DNA of 64,000 bases from Escherichia coli. GTDB lineage: Bacteria > Pseudomonadota > Gammaproteobacteria > Enterobacterales > Enterobacteriaceae. The stretch lies in NCBI RefSeq assembly GCF_009931435.1, contig NZ_CP043414.1; one strand, given 5' to 3'. The translations under genes were made by a program, and so were the position numbers. Below the pieces are notes generated by a model that saw only the letters and a list, made by a program, of their open reading frames with translations, had not been told where the DNA came from and did not search any database. Below, one piece after another: positions 1,282 through 11,919 of this stretch (position 1 is its first letter; every line of letters starts with the position of its first letter).

Positions 1282-1695
1282 ATGGCTAATAAACCTTCGG
1301 CAGAAGAACTGAAAAAAAATTTGTCCGAGATGCAGTTCTACGTGACGCAGAATCATGGGACAGAGCCGCCATTTACGGGTCGTTTACTGCATAACAAGCG
1401 TGACGGCGTATATCACTGTTTGATCTGCGATGCCCCGCTGTTTCATTCCCAAACCAAGTATGATTCCGGCTGTGGCTGGCCCAGTTTCTACGAACCGGTG
1501 AGTGAAGAATCCATTCGTTATATCAAAGACTTGTCACATGGAATGCAGCGCATAGAAATTCGTTGCGGTAACTGTGATGCCCATCTGGGGCATGTCTTCC
1601 CCGACGGGCCACAGCCAACGGGTGAACGTTATTGTGTTAACTCAGCCTCTTTACGCTTTACCGATGGCGAAAACGGCGAAGAAATCAACGGTTGA
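1282..1695 (+). CDS. msrB: Peptide methionine sulfoxide reductase B
   Basis: ORF 1252-1695; internal Met gives 137 aa [12 protein letters not shown]..., CxxC zinc motifs. Confidence 0.93.
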
Positions 1696-1736
1696 AAAAA
1701 CGATTCAGCAACTTATTCCACAGGAGCGGAAAATTT

Positions 1737-2009
1737 ATGAATCTTGATGACATTATCAACAGCATGACGCCTGAGGTATACCAGCGTTTGTCGACAGCCG
1801 TTGAACTGGGTAAGTGGCCAGATGGCGTTGCGCTGACCGAGGAACAAAAAGAGAACTGCCTACAGCTGGTGATGCTGTGGCAAGCCCGCCATAATACCGA
1901 AGCACAGCATATGACAATTGACACACATGGTCAGATGGTTATGAAGAGCAAACAACAGTTAAAAGAAGATTTTGGTATCTCAGCAAAGCCTATTGCCATG
2001 TTTAAATGA
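1737..2009 (+). CDS. yeaC: DUF1315 family protein YeaC
   Basis: 90-aa product MNLDDIINSMTPEVYQRL...; GGAG-containing RBS upstream. Confidence 0.85.
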   Translation: MNLDDIINSMTPEVYQRLSTAVELGKWPDGVALTEEQKENCLQLVMLWQARHNTEAQHMTIDTHGQMVMKSKQQLKEDFGISAKPIAMFK

Positions 2010-2124
2010 TTGAATTATTCAGCTTTTTGAGTCTGTTATTAAGTGCGAACAAAAATACTTGTTTGACGTCTTGATTGTTCGATTTAGCGGTTGATAGGTT
2101 AAATGCAACACTGACGAGTATAAC

Positions 2125-2159
2125 CTGGCCTACGATGTCAATGAGGAAATGTAGGCCAG
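2125..2159. other. Perfect 9-bp inverted repeat (ctggcctac / gtaggccag) with 17-nt loop, between convergent yeaC and pncA
   Basis: Read directly from sequence; lies 19 bp past the pncA stop. Confidence 0.5.
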
Positions 2160-2177
2160 AGATGTATTCAACTAATA

Positions 2178-2819
2178 TTACTCCTGCGTCTCTTCCCAGT
2201 CTGCCAGCGTATATAGCGTTGCCCCAGCTGCTGACATCTCCATAAACGCGTGCGCACTGTCCTGTGGCTGGATATTCACGCCACGACAACCATCGGTAAT
2301 CACATTAACCTTATAACCTAACTGTAACGCGTCCAGCACGGTAAACTTCACGCAATAGTCAGTAGCCAGGCCCATAATGATCAATTCATCGATTTCATGA
2401 TCGCGTAACCAGTCATCGAGCGTGGTTTTCTGCCGACGGCCGTTATCAAAAAAGGCACTGTAACTGTCAACTAAAGGATTTTCGCCTTTATGGAACACCG
2501 CTGCGATCGCTTTTTGGTTCAGTAACGGATGTAATTGTGCGCCTTCACTGTTCTGCACACAGTGATCTGGCCAGAAGGTTTGTGGCAAACCGTCGAGTTG
2601 GCCTGGCGTATAAGGCTCTACACCGTGCTGACTGGCAAAACTGCCGTGATTCGCCGGGTGCCAGTCTTGACTGGCGATAACCGCTTCACCGCGCGACTGG
2701 CACCAGTCAATCAGGCGGTTAGCGACATCCACCGTACTGTCACCTTCCGGCACGGCGAGCGCGCCACCAGCACAGAAATCATTTTGTAAATCGACCAGTA
2801 ACAGGGCGCGAGGGGGCAT
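2178..2819 (-). CDS. pncA: Nicotinamidase / pyrazinamidase
   Basis: 213-aa product MPPRALLLVDLQNDFCAGG...; AGGAG RBS. Confidence 0.93.
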   Translation of the reverse strand: MPPRALLLVDLQNDFCAGGALAVPEGDSTVDVANRLIDWCQSRGEAVIASQDWHPANHGSFASQHGVEPYTPGQLDGLPQTFWPDHCVQNSEGAQLHPLLNQKAIAAVFHKGENPLVDSYSAFFDNGRRQKTTLDDWLRDHEIDELIIMGLATDYCVKFTVLDALQLGYKVNVITDGCRGVNIQPQDSAHAFMEMSAAGATLYTLADWEETQE

Positions 2820-2829
2820 TGCAGTCTCC

Positions 2830-3846
2830 TTAATCATCCGGCGTCAGTTCGCCGCGCAGGTTTTGGCTCATGGCCTTGCGAATGGTTTCAGTATCCAGTT
2901 CCTGGCTAAGCAGGTAATGCAGTTTGGTTAGCGTGGCTTCTACAGTCATATCTGCACCGCCAATAACGCCGGCATGGGCGAGGGCGTTACCAGTGGCATA
3001 ACCCCCCATGTTCACTTTGCCGGACATACATTGTGTCAGGTTGACTACCACAATTCCGCGATCGCTGGCTTCTTGTAATTCTTGCAGGAAGGCTTTGTTT
3101 TGTGGCGCATTACCCACGCCATATGAGCGCAGAATCAATGCCTTCACCGGTTGGCGCAGAAAATTGCGCACGACGTCAGCAGAAATCCCTGGATAAATCG
3201 TCACTACGCCAATCGGTTGTGGGGTGATTGGATGAACGATCAATTCCCCTTCACCGTGCGGGGCGGGTGGCGTATTCAAACGACGAATATGGATACCTGC
3301 TTCCAGTAACGGAGGAAGGTTTGGAGAGGCAAACGCATCAAAACCATCGGCATGGGCTTTGGTGGTACGGTTGCCACGATAAAGTCGATTATTAAAAAAG
3401 AGAGTTACTTCGTTGATAGGATAATTCGCCGCAACGTACAACGCATTCAGCAGATTAATTTGTCCGTCAGAGCGTAACTCAGCCAGCGGGATTTGTGACC
3501 CTGTCACAATGACCGGTTTACCGAGATTCTCGAGCATGAACGACAGCGCAGAGGCGGTATACGCCATCGTGTCGGTGCCGTGCAGAATGACAAAACCATC
3601 ATAGTCGTCATAATGCGCTTTAATATCTTCAGCAATATGCTGCCAGTCTTCTGGCGTCATATCTGAAGAGTCCATCAGCGGCGTATATTCATGAATGGTG
3701 AAATCTGGCATCTCCGGGCGATGGAATTCCGGCATCAGCGCCAGTTGGCGTTGTAGATGACCTGACACCGGAATATAACCCTGCTCGGAACGCTGCATCC
3801 CGATGGTCCCGCCCGTGTAGGCGACGTAAATTGATTTCTTTTGCAT
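2830..3846 (-). CDS. ansA: L-asparaginase I (cytoplasmic)
   Basis: 338-aa product MQKKSIYVAYTGGTIGMQ... Confidence 0.95.
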   Translation of the reverse strand: MQKKSIYVAYTGGTIGMQRSEQGYIPVSGHLQRQLALMPEFHRPEMPDFTIHEYTPLMDSSDMTPEDWQHIAEDIKAHYDDYDGFVILHGTDTMAYTASALSFMLENLGKPVIVTGSQIPLAELRSDGQINLLNALYVAANYPINEVTLFFNNRLYRGNRTTKAHADGFDAFASPNLPPLLEAGIHIRRLNTPPAPHGEGELIVHPITPQPIGVVTIYPGISADVVRNFLRQPVKALILRSYGVGNAPQNKAFLQELQEASDRGIVVVNLTQCMSGKVNMGGYATGNALAHAGVIGGADMTVEATLTKLHYLLSQELDTETIRKAMSQNLRGELTPDD

Positions 3847-3977
3847 GATATTGATATGAATGATATCGAAAGAGCAAAAGTATATACGTGAGGGGCAGCG
3901 AGCGCACCTGGATACTCTGTGGATATGAGAAAAGTCCGGCAGAACGGAGGGATTAGTGTCCCGCCGGAGAAAAGTGG

Positions 3978-4790
3978 TTAATCCTGCAACGCATAGGTTA
4001 CGGTGGTTACTACGCGTACCGTTTTATTAATCGCCGTAGGATCATCTTCATCACTGCCACTGGCGAAGATCTGGAACACGCCTTGTGAGGCATCGCTAAT
4101 TGACCCCACCTGGCTACCTGAGTCCGTTGCAAATTGTAATGCTGCGTTGCGTGCATCTTTGGTGGCGGCGGCAATCATCTCAGCGCGCAGTGCGCCAATA
4201 CCATTAAAGCGATAGGCGACTTTGCTCTCAGCGATAGCGCCCTCCGTAGCGACTTGCAGTTCGTTTAATTTCGCGACGACTTTTTCGACAGCAGCAACAT
4301 TATGGGTTTTTATCGTCACTGACCCGTCTGCGTTATAGCGTGGCATTGTGGGATCATCTTTCAGATAAAAGGAATCTGTTCGCTTGCTTGTCCATTGGCC
4401 CAGGGTTATCTCTTTCTCGTTAATCCCCTGAGCATTGAGTTCGGCAACAATTTTTTTCTGCGCGTCTTCCAGTTTCGGGAACAGTTCGCCGGGAATATTA
4501 CCCTTAAAGTTAATCGCAATTGTTAATTCTGCCGTATCTGCGCGAACTTCTTTTTCAGAAAGCCCACGCACATTTACATAACGGTTATTGGTTTTTAAAT
4601 GTTTAACACCATCGCCAACAAAATAACCACAGGCGCTAATCCCCAGTCCGAGGACGATAGCGGCAATTAAAGAGGGGGCCTTATTCACTGATGACTCCAT
4701 ATCAGATGCTAAATGAGCAAGGGAATGTAGTGGAGAGAGGGAGTGAAAGACAGTCCGATTCAGGAGTGTGGCCGACAGCATATCGGCCAC
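3978..4790 (-). CDS. SIMPL/DUF541-like putative lipoprotein (YggE-like); likely true start near 4701 (MESSVNK...)
   Basis: 270-aa ORF; hydrophobic leader with lipobox-like ISAC, then a fold pattern resembling the SIMPL family; no strong SD at either candidate start. Confidence 0.6.
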   Translation of the reverse strand: MADMLSATLLNRTVFHSLSPLHSLAHLASDMESSVNKAPSLIAAIVLGLGISACGYFVGDGVKHLKTNNRYVNVRGLSEKEVRADTAELTIAINFKGNIPGELFPKLEDAQKKIVAELNAQGINEKEITLGQWTSKRTDSFYLKDDPTMPRYNADGSVTIKTHNVAAVEKVVAKLNELQVATEGAIAESKVAYRFNGIGALRAEMIAAATKDARNAALQFATDSGSQVGSISDASQGVFQIFASGSDEDDPTAINKTVRVVTTVTYALQD

Positions 4791-4803
4791 ATTTTTGCAG
4801 GAT

Positions 4804-6660
4804 TTAACGCACGTTGGCGCAGGTCAGGCAAAACGCATAACGGTTTTGTGGGTCGTTAAACGCTGCCAGCTTGTCGCTTTCACTTTTAACGGTAGAGGCT
4901 ACCGAGGCCAGCGGTGCAGGTAACATGGCCTGGAACGCATCTGGCAACATTGCCCGGACAGAACCAGACATATTGTCCATCACTTTGTCGAAGAAGGTCG
5001 GTTCATCAACGTAGTATTCCAGATGCCACTGTTTCACTTTTGCCAGCTCTGCTGCTTTGGCAACCGCATCATCGAAATCTCCGAGACTATCGACCAGCCC
5101 GTTAGCTTTTGCATCCTGACCGGTCCAGACGTGGCCCTGGGCGATTTTATCAATCTGCTCCGGCGTCGAATGACGCGCATCAGCAACCAGCGTGATAAAG
5201 CGTTTATAGCCATTCTCAATGCTTAACTGCATCATCTGCTGCGCTTCCGGCGGCAGTGCCTTGGTGATAGAAACATCCGCCAGCGGTGAAGTTGAGACGC
5301 CATCGGTATGAACACCAATCGAATCCAAACTATTTTCTACGGTAGTGATCACGCCGAAGATACCGATAGAACCGGTCAGGGTGCTGGGGTTAGCCACAAT
5401 GTAATTAGCTGGCGTGGAAATCCAGTAACCACCAGATGCCGCCATGCCGCCCATCGATACAACCACAGGCTTACCCGCTGCCCTGGCGGCTGCCAGTTCA
5501 GCGCGAATCACTTCAGAGGCGGTAACGCTGCCGCCAGGGCTATTAACACGCAGAACAATCGCTTTCACTTTCGGGTCAAGGCGAGCGTCGCGGATTTGTG
5601 CCGCAGTGGTATCACCGCCAACATTCCCCTGAGTTTCCTCGCCATCCATAATTGCGCCATTCGCGAAGACGACACCGATGCTGTCACCGGTATCTGCCGG
5701 CGTTTTCAATGCGTAATCGTAATAACTGATGGCGCGATAATTTTTATCAGTCTTACTCCAGCCGAACTCTTTGGTCAGAGCTTTTTCGATTTCGGCACTT
5801 GATGCCAGTGCATCGACCAGCTTGTTTTCCAGCGCATATTTCGCGGTATCGCCACCTGTTTTGGTTAAACCCTCAAGCAACCCTTGCGCACCAGGGAATA
5901 CCTGCTGAGCAGGGATCTGCCGGTTAGCGGCAACAGTATTCAGATAGTTTTGCCACAGCTCACCGATCCAGCGGCTGTCAGCTTCGCGGGCTGCCGGTGA
6001 CATATCATCACGAATAAACGGTTCAACGGCAGATTTATACGTACCCACGCGGAACACATGGGTGGAGACTTTCAGCTTATCCAGTAACGATTTGTAGTAC
6101 AGACCGTTGGTAGCAAAACCGTGCAGATCCACCACGCCTTGTGGAGATAGCCAAATTTTGTTGGCGAAACTGGCGAGATAATATTGCCCCTGGCTGTAGT
6201 TCTCGCCTATGGCATAAACTGGCTTCCCGCTGTCACGAAACTCTTTCAGGGCTTTGCCGATGTACTGCATAGACGGCTGGTCGCCGCCTGCGAAGTTTTT
6301 CAGATCCATCACGATACCGGTGATATTGCGGTCGTCCTTCGCCTGGCGAATGGTGTTGACGATATCAAACAGTGAGTTTTCCTGCAGACGGTCGGAACTG
6401 GCACCAAGGAGCTGGCGGCTTAGCTTACTAAACCGCTGAGAACTGTCGGGTTTATCGACGATTACACCAGATATGTCCAGCAGCAGCGCGCCACGACTGG
6501 CCGTTTCTTTCGAATCACCACCTCTGACCTGCATCCAGATCCCCACACCAACCAGTACGAGAAAAATAAAGAACAGGTTAAGTACCATTTCACGGACGAA
6601 ATTCAGCAGACGCCACGTCCATTTAAAAAATCCGGCAATAAATCGCCAAAGGGTTCGCAT
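4804..6660 (-). CDS. sppA: Signal peptide peptidase A (protease IV)
   Basis: 618-aa product from internal Met [14 protein letters not shown]... Confidence 0.95.
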
Positions 6661-8536: not shown

Positions 8537-10492
8537 ATGCGGTTGTTTATTGCCGAAAAACCGAGTCTGGCGCGCGCCATTGCTGATGTCCTGCCCAAAC
8601 CGCACCGGAAAGGCGATGGCTTTATCGAGTGCGGTAATGGCCAGGTGGTGACCTGGTGTATCGGTCACCTGCTTGAGCAGGCGCAGCCAGACGCCTACGA
8701 CAGTCGCTATGCGCGCTGGAACCTGGCCGATCTCCCCATTGTCCCGGAAAAGTGGCAATTACAGCCACGACCCTCCGTGACCAAACAACTTAATGTGATC
8801 AAACGCTTCCTGCATGAAGCCAGCGAAATCGTTCACGCCGGGGACCCGGATCGCGAAGGACAATTGCTGGTGGATGAAGTGCTGGACTACCTGCAACTGG
8901 CACCGGAAAAGCGCCAGCAGGTACAGCGTTGTTTGATAAACGACCTGAACCCGCAGGCGGTTGAGCGGGCGATCGATCGTCTTCGCTCCAATAGCGAGTT
9001 TGTACCACTGTGCGTTTCTGCGCTGGCGCGAGCACGAGCCGACTGGTTATACGGCATCAATATGACCCGCGCGTACACCATTCTCGGTCGTAATGCGGGT
9101 TATCAGGGCGTGCTTTCCGTGGGACGCGTGCAGACGCCCGTGCTCGGGCTGGTGGTGCGCCGCGATGAAGAAATTGAAAACTTCGTGGCTAAAGACTTCT
9201 TTGAAGTCAAAGCGCATATCGTGACACCTGCCGATGAGCGGTTTACCGCTATCTGGCAACCGAGCGAAGCGTGTGAACCGTACCAGGATGAAGAAGGGCG
9301 CTTGTTACATCGTCCGCTGGCGGAGCATGTAGTTAACCGCATTAGTGGTCAACCGGCTATTGTCACCAGCTATAACGATAAACGGGAATCAGAATCCGCG
9401 CCGCTGCCGTTTTCGCTTTCGGCGTTGCAGATTGAAGCGGCAAAACGCTTTGGTCTGAGCGCGCAGAATGTGCTTGATATTTGCCAGAAGCTGTACGAAA
9501 CGCACAAGCTAATCACTTATCCGCGTTCCGATTGTCGCTATTTGCCAGAAGAACATTTTGCCGGACGCCACGCGGTGATGAATGCTATCGGCGTCCATGC
9601 GCCGGATCTGTTGCCGCAACCAGTGGTAGATCCAGATATACGCAACCGCTGTTGGGATGACAAAAAGGTCGATGCGCACCACGCCATCATCCCGACCGCG
9701 AGGAGTTCTGCCATCAACCTGACGGAAAACGAGGCGAAGGTCTATAACCTGATTGCTCGTCAGTATTTGATGCAGTTCTGTCCGGACGCGGTGTTCCGCA
9801 AGTGTGTTATCGAACTGGAAATAGCCAAAGGCAAATTTGTCGCTAAAGCCCGTTTTCTAGCTGAAGCAGGCTGGCGCACGCTGTTAGGCAGCAAAGAGCG
9901 CGATGAAGAAAACGACGGCACGCCACTGCCTGTGGTGGCGAAAGGCGATGAGTTGCTGTGTGAAAAAGGTGAAGTGGTAGAGCGGCAAACCCAGCCGCCG
10001 CGCCATTTTACCGATGCAACACTGCTTTCGGCGATGACCGGGATCGCGCGCTTTGTGCAGGACAAAGATCTGAAAAAGATCCTTCGTGCCACCGATGGTC
10101 TGGGGACAGAAGCGACTCGCGCCGGGATTATTGAACTGCTGTTCAAGCGAGGCTTCCTGACCAAAAAAGGGCGCTATATCCACTCCACCGACGCCGGAAA
10201 AGCATTATTCCATTCGCTGCCAGAGATGGCGACGCGACCGGACATGACCGCGCACTGGGAATCGGTGCTGACGCAAATCAGCGAAAAGCAGTGTCGCTAT
10301 CAGGACTTTATGCAACCGTTGGTGGGGACGCTGTATCAGTTGATTGATCAGGCCAAACGTACGCCGGTGCGGCAGTTTCGCGGCATAGTGGCTCCAGATG
10401 GCGGAGAAGGAAATAAAAAGACTTCATCACGTAAGCGAGCAGCGAAAAAAAGCCCGCCATCAGCAGAGGCGGGCAGTGGAGTGATAATGTAA
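8537..10492 (+). CDS. topB: DNA topoisomerase III
   Basis: 651-aa product [19 protein letters not shown]... Confidence 0.95.
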
Positions 10493-10517
10493 TGCTCTGA
10501 TGCAGTCAGTTTTCGTA

Positions 10518-10548
10518 GGCCAGATAAGGCGTTCACGCCGCATCTGGC
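10518..10548. repeat. REP (repetitive extragenic palindrome) element
   Basis: ggccagataaggcgttcacgccgcatctggc matches the classic REP core; between convergent topB and gdhA. Confidence 0.6.
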
Positions 10549-10575
10549 ATAAACGCCTGAAACGGCGCTAATGAC

Positions 10576-11919
10576 TTAAATCACCCCCTGCGCCAGCATC
10601 GCATCGGCAACCTTCACAAAACCGGCAATGTTCGCGCCCTGCACGTAGTTGGTTTGCTCACCTTCACCACCATGCTCAACACAGGCATGGTGGATATCCA
10701 GCATGATGTGATGCAAACGTGCGTCAACTTTCTCGGCTTTCCAGCCCAGGCGCGCAGCGTTTTGCGCCATTTCCAGGCCGGATGTAGCTACGCCACCAGC
10801 ATTAGCCGCTTTACCCGGTGCAAACAGTACGCCTGCCTGCTGGAACAGTTCAGTCGCTTCGATGGTGGTCGGCATATTTGCCCCTTCGGCGACGGCTTTA
10901 ACGCCATTGGCGATAAGCTGATGCGCGGCGTCTACATCCAGTTCGTTCTGGGTGGCGCAAGGCAGGGCGATATCAACCGGTACAGACCACGGCTGTTGGC
11001 CTTCGAGATAGACCAGGCCAAATTCTTTGGCGTAATCTGCCACTCGACCATCGCGGCTGGCTTTGATTTCGATAAGACGTGCCAGTTTCTCTTTAGTGAA
11101 TCCGCTTTCATCAACGACAGTGCCACTGGAATCTGACGCAGTAATCACACGGGCACCAAATTCCATCGCTTTTTCGATAGCGTACTGAGCGACGTTGCCG
11201 GAGCCAGAAACGGAAACGCGCATCCCTTCAAAACCCATACCGTGGCGTTTTAGCATTGCTTCTGTGAAATAAACCAGACCGTAGCCGGTTGCTTCCGGGC
11301 GAATAAGACTGCCGCCAAAAGAAAGCCCCTTACCGGTGAAGACGCAGGCGGTATTGTTGGAGAGCTTTTTCATCATCCCCGCCATAAAGCCGACTTCACG
11401 ACCACCAACGCCGATATCACCTGCCGGAACGTCGGTATCCGCGCCCAGGTGGCGATACAGTTCAGTCATCAGGGCCTGGCAAAAACGCATCACTTCACCT
11501 TCGCTTTTTCCTTTCGGATCGAAATCGCTGCCACCTTTACCACCGCCCATCGGCAGGGTAGTCAGGGCATTTTTGAAGGTTTGCTCGAAGCCGAGAAATT
11601 TGAGAATGGAGAGGTTAACTGACGGATGGAAACGCATACCGCCTTTGTACGGGCCGATGGCGGAGCTGAACTGCACGCGCCATGCACGGTTGACCTGTAC
11701 CTGGTTGCGATCGTCAACCCATACCACGCGAAACTGGATCACGCGCTCCGGTTCAACCAGACGCTCCAGTAATGACATTTGGCGATATTTTGGATTTTGT
11801 TCAAGAAAAGGCCAGAGTGTGGTCATTACTTCACGAACGGCTTGCGCGAACTCGGTTTGATTCGGGTCGCGCTTTTGGACATGGTTGAGGAATGACTCCA
11901 GAGAATATGTCTGATCCAT
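10576..11919 (-). CDS. gdhA: NADP-specific glutamate dehydrogenase
   Basis: 447-aa product MDQTYSLESFLNHVQKRDP... Confidence 0.97.
   Translation of the reverse strand: MDQTYSLESFLNHVQKRDPNQTEFAQAVREVMTTLWPFLEQNPKYRQMSLLERLVEPERVIQFRVVWVDDRNQVQVNRAWRVQFSSAIGPYKGGMRFHPSVNLSILKFLGFEQTFKNALTTLPMGGGKGGSDFDPKGKSEGEVMRFCQALMTELYRHLGADTDVPAGDIGVGGREVGFMAGMMKKLSNNTACVFTGKGLSFGGSLIRPEATGYGLVYFTEAMLKRHGMGFEGMRVSVSGSGNVAQYAIEKAMEFGARVITASDSSGTVVDESGFTKEKLARLIEIKASRDGRVADYAKEFGLVYLEGQQPWSVPVDIALPCATQNELDVDAAHQLIANGVKAVAEGANMPTTIEATELFQQAGVLFAPGKAANAGGVATSGLEMAQNAARLGWKAEKVDARLHHIMLDIHHACVEHGGEGEQTNYVQGANIAGFVKVADAMLAQGVI

Follow-up and report, generated by a model that had tools for sequence, protein, structure and literature searches.

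A compact topB-gdhA junction with a REP hairpin at the position of ynjI in Escherichia coli: a probably ancestral arrangement with a predicted gdhA terminator inside topB

In Escherichia coli K-12 the gene ynjI lies between topB and gdhA, whereas in the 64,000-nucleotide stretch of E. coli DNA analysed here (the window; contig NZ_CP043414.1) the two genes converge on a short spacer that contains a REP element. This difference raises the question of which of the two states is the older, and of how transcription of the two genes would end when nothing else lies between them. From the list of open reading frames, the annotation of a near-identical locus and tblastn, topB (DNA topoisomerase III, 651 aa) was placed at 8537-10492 on the plus strand and gdhA (NADP-specific glutamate dehydrogenase, 447 aa) at 10576-11919 on the minus strand. 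As the preliminary description of this DNA had stated, the open reading frame coordinates and tblastn leave exactly 83 bp (10493-10575) between the convergent stop codons, with the stops at 10492 and 10576; this spacer is the 3' flank of topB and forms part of the predicted gdhA 3' UTR. The statement in that description that K-12 carries ynjI at this site was also correct. In MG1655, ynjI (b1762, 1,041 bp) is encoded on the topB strand within a stop-to-stop spacer of 1,284 bp, and the compact junction, which was looked for there, is not present. The window has no open reading frame between topB and gdhA, and tblastn with YnjI gave zero matches anywhere in its 64 kb, confirming that the gene is absent. 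Absence of ynjI is an ordinary accessory-gene polymorphism, a known kind of difference between strains.

The spacer holds a single REP (palindromic unit) at 10515-10549 on the plus strand, GTAGGCCAGATAAGGCGTTCACGCCGCATCTGGCA, with a GTAG head, which was assigned by consensus matching, folding, Rfam and comparison with orthologues. Positions 10519-10548 agree at 27 of 30 positions with GCCGGATAAGGCGTTTACGCCGCATCCGGC, the E. coli REP consensus, which we take to be that of the Y-type palindromic unit; none of 100 shuffles of the window matched to this degree. On folding, the REP hairpin was formed on both strands. Its three differences from the consensus include a compensatory change of a G-C to an A-T pair in the stem (GCCAGAT...ATCTGGC against GCCGGAT...ATCCGGC), which is fixed in the haplotype of the window. 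The GTAG tetranucleotide (10515-10518) directly adjoins the stem on its 5' side; GTAG at the foot of the hairpin is presumably the recognition site of RAYT/TnpA-REP. An Rfam search at a permissive threshold returned just a chance match to Hrs1 and a sub-threshold match of naRNA4 (RF02564) to the REP (36 bits against a gathering score of 59.5, E 7e-5), and no small RNA family. The resemblance to naRNA4, a REP-derived nucleoid-associated RNA, extends to sequence and structure across one REP hairpin; however, with a single hairpin matched below the gathering score, the spacer is not a member of that family, and the match reflects recognition of the REP.

A collapsed or misjoined assembly could create a compact junction, and a chance inverted repeat could be mistaken for a REP. 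Both explanations were rejected, and their probability is negligible: the 83-bp spacer is identical base for base in the window and in seven sampled, independently assembled genomes, and the palindrome combines a consensus match that shuffling did not reach with recognition by a REP-derived Rfam model.

Between the REP and the gdhA stop, judging from the fold and the sequences of relatives, lies what looks like a degenerate fragment of a second, inverted REP (10550-10575). The fragment forms a small hairpin from CGCC (10554-10557) and GGCG (10564-10567). At this position relatives carry GCCTGA(C/T)GCG(A/G)CGCT, with which a second REP begins; the unit is complete in E. albertii. The earlier statement that most of the spacer is REP was therefore roughly right, in that the REP proper accounts for 35 of the 83 bp and a further stretch of about 20 bp (10550-10569) resembles the second unit, although only as a degenerate fragment. 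As a 35-nt imperfect palindrome with a GTAG head, located outside genes between two convergent stop codons, the element resembles the REPs and BIMEs of E. coli. A BIME comprises at least two alternating REPs with a linker; in the window, by contrast, the REP is solitary and accompanied by a degenerate stub of a second unit, and its stem carries the pair change described above.

Within the 64-kb window, one copy of the REP was found at three or fewer mismatches. A copy of 10514-10548 with 100% identity was found elsewhere in another genome (H30), in an unannotated stretch, and a 483-bp junction query (10293-10775) matched a median of 4 places per genome in related genomes. At the junction itself, an orthologous REP with the same left flank was present in E. 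albertii, two other Escherichia species representatives and B2 E. coli. An alternative fold is possible in RNA of gdhA sense (10519-10562, minus strand): the flank GGCATAAACGCCT, specific to the window, can form a 13-bp helix, two of its pairs G.U, with the inner half of the REP. There the helix is a competitor of the canonical REP hairpin, whereas the topB-sense strand prefers the canonical hairpin.

The distribution of the alternative junctions was surveyed in 5,426 complete E. coli genomes. ynjI encodes a DUF1266 inner-membrane protein (YnjI matches PF06889), and its DNA was detected in 3,506 of these genomes; it occupies exactly the topB-gdhA position in K-12 and in 65% of the complete genomes. 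The compact junction was found in 1,512. Among the matches listed, 17 genomes carry the allele of the window (>98% identity), and 1,497 records fall into an 80-90% identity band that represents a second compact allele, carried by about 1,495 genomes. The latter is about 84% identical to the window and has a 76-bp spacer with its own REP, as in strain 81009; we refer to it as B2-type, a presumed phylogroup label. Most of the remaining genomes, about 400, appear to carry at the same position a 4.4-kb island of Hsp70-family, SEL1-repeat and TPR genes, which was found at full length in 61 genomes and, with partial matches of at least 95% identity, in about 345.

These alleles differ by more than a clean indel: an entire haplotype block is involved, including the last ~100 nt of topB. 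When the window was aligned with K-12 and a B2 strain, identity collapsed from 10393 to the topB stop, defining a hypervariable 3' tail of topB (10393-10492, plus strand; last ~33 codons). The K-12-type topB tail with its downstream flank occurs in 3,507 of the 5,426 genomes, against 3,506 with ynjI, so that the gene and this tail are in near-complete linkage. The last ~20 nt of gdhA also differ in the B2 and island alleles. Given these block-wide differences and the linkage of tail and ynjI, the junction behaves as a cassette that is exchanged by homologous recombination within topB and gdhA. The gene-content difference from K-12 that had been noted is real, and it is accompanied by a different topB tail. 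For annotation and pan-genome work, the useful view of ynjI is that of an accessory gene, inserted and silenced by H-NS, which is linked to a topB tail allele of its own.

The position of the cassette can be given closely. The ynjI segment of K-12 lies between a left flank TTTCGT and a right flank CATAAACGCCTGAAA; in the window the REP lies between the same two sequences, the match on the left being 6 nt only. Because these flanks are shared, the cassette sits where the REP sits, and the description of the REP as standing in place of ynjI proved nearly literal. The right-hand 15-mer, located by alignment at 10548-10562 (plus strand), equals the sequence that spans the ynjI stop codon in K-12. 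Most simply, it is a shared ancestral right flank of the REP or ynjI-cassette position, itself probably derived from a REP.

Several observations bear on which state came first. ynjI has a GC content of 41%, compared with 53-55% for the flanking topB and gdhA. Its regulators in K-12 are H-NS/StpA, which repress it, and the activator BglJ-RcsB (PMC3950696); the literature on ynjI was found to deal with regulation or to consist of gene lists. AT-richness and regulation by H-NS/StpA are typical of acquired genes. The topB neighbourhood was also retrieved with TopB from 80 species representatives, and the interval between the stop codons of topB and gdhA was measured. Convergent topB and gdhA with a 3-190-bp spacer, often filled with REPs or BIMEs, were found in most syntenic genera of Enterobacteriaceae, including Citrobacter, Salmonella, Enterobacter, Kosakonia, Kluyvera and Pseudocitrobacter. 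Only one of the 80 representatives, Escherichia sp. MOD1-EC7003, had ynjI at this site, and the gene was absent from the site in every outgroup genus examined. Within Escherichia, three of the four representatives lack it: the record titled E. coli SCPM-O-B-8794 has an 81-bp spacer, Escherichia sp. E1V33 a 95-bp spacer and E. albertii a REP-filled spacer of 260 bp. On the strength of outgroup synteny, the contrast in GC content and the H-NS/StpA regulation, ynjI is best regarded as acquired. The compact junction is thus probably the older and widespread state and the K-12 gene a derived insertion, and ynjI being absent from the window does not mean that it was lost. This inverts the framing of the preliminary description, since K-12 becomes the strain with the insertion.

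The homologue in MOD1-EC7003 (91% amino acid identity to YnjI) occupies the same site in a second Escherichia species, which counts against simple retention of the compact state. The insertion must therefore be old, and the lack of ynjI in other Escherichia could partly reflect later replacement or loss. It is conceivable that ynjI was once present in the lineage of the window itself and was removed later, with illegitimate or REP-associated recombination as one possible route and the REP remaining or being re-seeded at the scar. The age of the gene in the genus would allow this, REPs are known substrates of recombination and transposition (PMC1525189), and both the 15-mer CATAAACGCCTGAAA and the left 6-mer common to the window and K-12 are also what a deletion of ynjI would leave. 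However, orthologues of the REP together with its flank occur in E. albertii, the other Escherichia representatives and B2 strains, and the absence of the gene from the site in the outgroups also argues against a deletion. No intermediate haplotype was found among the 5,426 genomes; a chimeric query joining the 3' end of ynjI directly to the right flank of the window matched no genome, and its best matches fell into two pieces with the K-12 BIME between them. Furthermore, the topB tail of the window is deeply diverged from the ynjI-linked tail and keeps an ancestral hairpin, described below, that the tails of K-12 and MOD1-EC7003 lack; the window allele is therefore no simple deletion derivative of the K-12 allele. 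We consider secondary loss in this lineage improbable. The preferred reading is of an ancestral-type compact junction with one old REP hairpin and the stub of a second REP, in a haplotype into which ynjI would never have been inserted or from which recombination would have excluded the ynjI-bearing block. Taken jointly with the mode of termination proposed below, this reading, as opposed to recent deletion from a K-12-like sequence, seems likely to us.

A promoter and terminator scan of 10300-10800 found no hairpin with a U-tract on either strand of the spacer; the sole site was inside topB. This predicted Rho-independent terminator of gdhA (10445-10474, minus strand), identified by terminator scan, folding and conservation, is made up on the gdhA-sense strand of a stem GCCCGCC (10474-10468), a 9-nt loop UCUGCUGAU, a stem GGCGGGC (10458-10452) and U7 (10451-10445). 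The same nucleotides are read in topB as AAA AAA AGC CCG CCA TCA GCA GAG GCG GGC. The 7-bp all-G/C stem folds with -17.5 kcal/mol (z -4.2) and lies about 100-130 nt past the gdhA stop, within the last ~50 nt of topB. Its sequence has the form of an intrinsic terminator, a GC stem-loop followed by a U-tract on the gdhA-sense strand downstream of gdhA. No description of a gdhA/topB terminator was found in the literature.

The structure was recovered in 20 taxa, comprising the window, B2 E. coli, two other Escherichia representatives, eleven Citrobacter, Pseudocitrobacter faecalis, Intestinirhabdus and three Kosakonia. Across these taxa the core 7-bp stem is paired in 139 of 140 cells. All eight one-sided changes in the stem give a G.U pair on the gdhA-sense strand and an A.C mismatch on the topB-sense strand. 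The stem and U-tract include seven third positions that could change synonymously, of which five show no variation and two hardly any; elsewhere in topB of these taxa, invariance is seen at 4% of four-fold columns and 8-10% of Lys/Glu columns. GAG, a non-preferred codon, is used here without exception, while the loop codons vary freely. Four lines in this pattern of conservation point to selection on the nucleic acid and not on the protein alone.

The hairpin and its A/U-tract might nevertheless have nothing to do with gdhA termination, and reflect instead a constraint on the basic tail of TopB (KKSPP...EAG) or on codon usage, or a role in topB mRNA, with gdhA transcripts terminated by Rho or ending at the REP. 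At the protein level the KKSPP..EAG motif is conserved too, and in the window the hairpin is equally stable on the topB-sense strand (-17.2 kcal/mol). A simple terminator scan gave 1 site where 0.6 is expected in shuffles, which alone is not significant. Covariation shuffles were not significant either; the stem barely varies, with about 3-4 independent wobble events. Because a stem that hardly varies makes covariation statistics uninformative, we relied on synonymous-site conservation, and it is here that the alternative fares poorly: the invariance of third positions stands far above the background, GAG is constant, the loop codons are free to vary, and the one-sided changes preserve pairing in the gdhA sense only. 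In addition, the hairpin is degenerate in both ynjI-bearing alleles that were folded (-7.2 kcal/mol in K-12 and -8.8 kcal/mol in MOD1-EC7003, against -17.5 in the window) and in two species representatives whose spacers hold BIMEs and measure 133-188 bp, a Pseudocitrobacter MAG and a Citrobacter sp. We regard a role unrelated to gdhA termination as unlikely.

We infer from sequence that in compact alleles gdhA would terminate inside the end of topB, the roles given here to the terminator and the REP and in topB termination all being predictions. Transcription of gdhA would run through the spacer, placing the REP hairpin in the gdhA 3' UTR, and would then stop at the hairpin and U7 within the end of topB. 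A REP in a 3' UTR is a textbook barrier to 3' exonucleases, and the one in the gdhA 3' UTR could act in this way. For topB, with no U-tract terminator of its own in the spacer, termination would probably depend on the REP hairpin, on Rho or on head-on interference. Insertion of ynjI would have relaxed the constraint on the terminator. In its fuller form, the proposal is that the last ~50 nt of topB have a dual use, encoding the KKSPP..EAG basic tail of TopB and the gdhA terminator, and that this arrangement has been kept from Escherichia to Citrobacter/Kosakonia and decays once ynjI or long BIMEs intervene; we judge the arguments for and against this fuller form to be evenly balanced.

If the dual use is real, the C-terminal sequence of TopB is partly shaped by the transcription signal of its neighbour, and insertion of ynjI rewired 3'-end formation of gdhA in two thirds of E. 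coli. An embedded gdhA terminator, if confirmed, would be a tidy overlap of protein coding and RNA signal between convergent genes and would show how an insertion relaxes such a constraint. With a 7-bp GC stem and U7 downstream of gdhA and inside the opposing reading frame, the predicted element resembles intrinsic terminators that overlap a convergent coding end. It differs from them in not being bidirectional, the topB strand having no U-tract after the hairpin, and in being kept across genera as both protein tail and predicted terminator.

Other topB tails gave further observations. In E. albertii NBRC 107761 (retrieved locus L010) a premature TAG in topB (6151-6153) removes the last ~30 codons, including the part that encodes the terminator, and the 260-bp spacer (6154-6413) contains a duplicated REP-plus-flank unit around the complete second REP. 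In Serratia (L077, L084, L086) and Klebsiella michiganensis (L049), where gdhA is not beside topB, the topB tail has A-rich Lys codons followed by a GC hairpin, which on the opposite strand reads as a hairpin and T-tract. The tail of topB may generally host the terminator of whatever convergent gene follows.

The junction has received cargo other than ynjI. The 4.4-kb island, located at 1640-6088 of the retrieved locus of E. coli Z1323HEC0355 (L007) and present also in two further loci (L005, L006), encodes an Hsp70-family protein, a SEL1-like repeat protein and a truncated TPR protein. In the island allele topB ends in yet another tail (...KKAAKPQKDNTDSAN), the fourth and unrelated to the others, and no REP adjoins gdhA. 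The TPR pseudogene was considered as a relative of YnjI and rejected, there being no tblastn match between them; the island and ynjI are unrelated cargo. A segment of ~128 bp between topB and the Hsp70 gene of the island (L007, ~5902-6029) is a dispersed repeat, with matches of 90-92% in 5,398 of the 5,426 E. coli genomes at a median of 3 places and with copies in unannotated stretches.

Two mobile elements were also found at the REP. Chromosomal integration hot spots between conserved core genes are known from E. coli comparative genomics. In one genome, strain CE2050 (L004, ~2056-3492), IS1397 has inserted into the B2-type REP at its loop, and a short duplication (GTTT/TTT) accompanies it. 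The REP of an allele related to that of the window is thus used, like other REPs of E. coli, as a target of IS1397, for which targeting of REPs is a known preference (PMC1525189). Strain RMDEC465 carries a 2,359-bp group II intron (L095, 10513-12871) with a 562-aa ltrA on the gdhA-sense strand. Its insertion point corresponds to 10512|10513 of the window; read in the gdhA sense, this is 4 nt beyond the REP hairpin. Terminator-like motifs are the targets of some group II introns (PMC4424553), and the REP hairpin may have been used as a target of this kind.

ynjI, IS1397, the Hsp70/SEL1/TPR island and the group II intron therefore all occur between the same core flanks. Like the integration hot spots of E. 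coli, topB and gdhA flank alternative contents (nothing, ynjI, the island, IS1397 or the group II intron). Unlike them, the site takes up small cargo (0-4.4 kb) and has no tRNA, integrase or att site, and its alleles replace the 3' tail of topB as well, which points to homologous recombination in the flanks. We propose that the site is multi-allelic in E. coli because the hairpin-rich spacer would serve as a landing site for structure-seeking mobile DNA. The topB-gdhA spacer is best handled as a small hot spot with several alleles, its REP hairpin drawing IS1397 and a group II intron. None of its components is of a new kind: they are a lone REP with the remnant of a BIME, a variably present accessory gene silenced by H-NS, a small hot spot, mobile elements that target hairpins and a predicted terminator overlapping a convergent reading frame. 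The one element with some novelty is the conserved combination of predicted terminator and TopB tail.

The window itself represents a divergent lineage. Over 24 kb its identity is 99.3% with strain 2020CK-00188, ~98.3% with a dozen others (98.3% with RMDEC465) and only ~95.5% with ordinary E. coli; over 13 kb the values are 95.35% for K-12 and 94.9% for a B2 strain. The lineage is possibly one such as cryptic clade I, a placement judged from identity levels only. A junction of the window type, at 98.8-99.2% identity, is also present in MFDS1022581, MFDS1019527, 24A16CRGN010, N96 and 2017-02-2CC. None of these appears in the set with at least 98% identity to the window across 24 kb; this junction haplotype may have moved between lineages by recombination.

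Two further differences in gene content were observed in the window. Between yeaC and pncA (2006-2172), 167 bp take the place of the 9.17-kb ydjL-ydjK-ydjJ-ydjI-ydjH-ydjG-ydjF-ydjE cluster. The cluster is absent in sister strains such as RMDEC465 and present in the closest relative, 2020CK-00188, and ydjE is annotated beside pncA in Z1323HEC0355. The interval between ansA and sppA, in which no gene is annotated in K-12 or Z1323HEC0355, contains in the window a gene for a SIMPL-domain protein at ~3978-4688 (minus strand), as placed by correspondence with the RMDEC465 locus.
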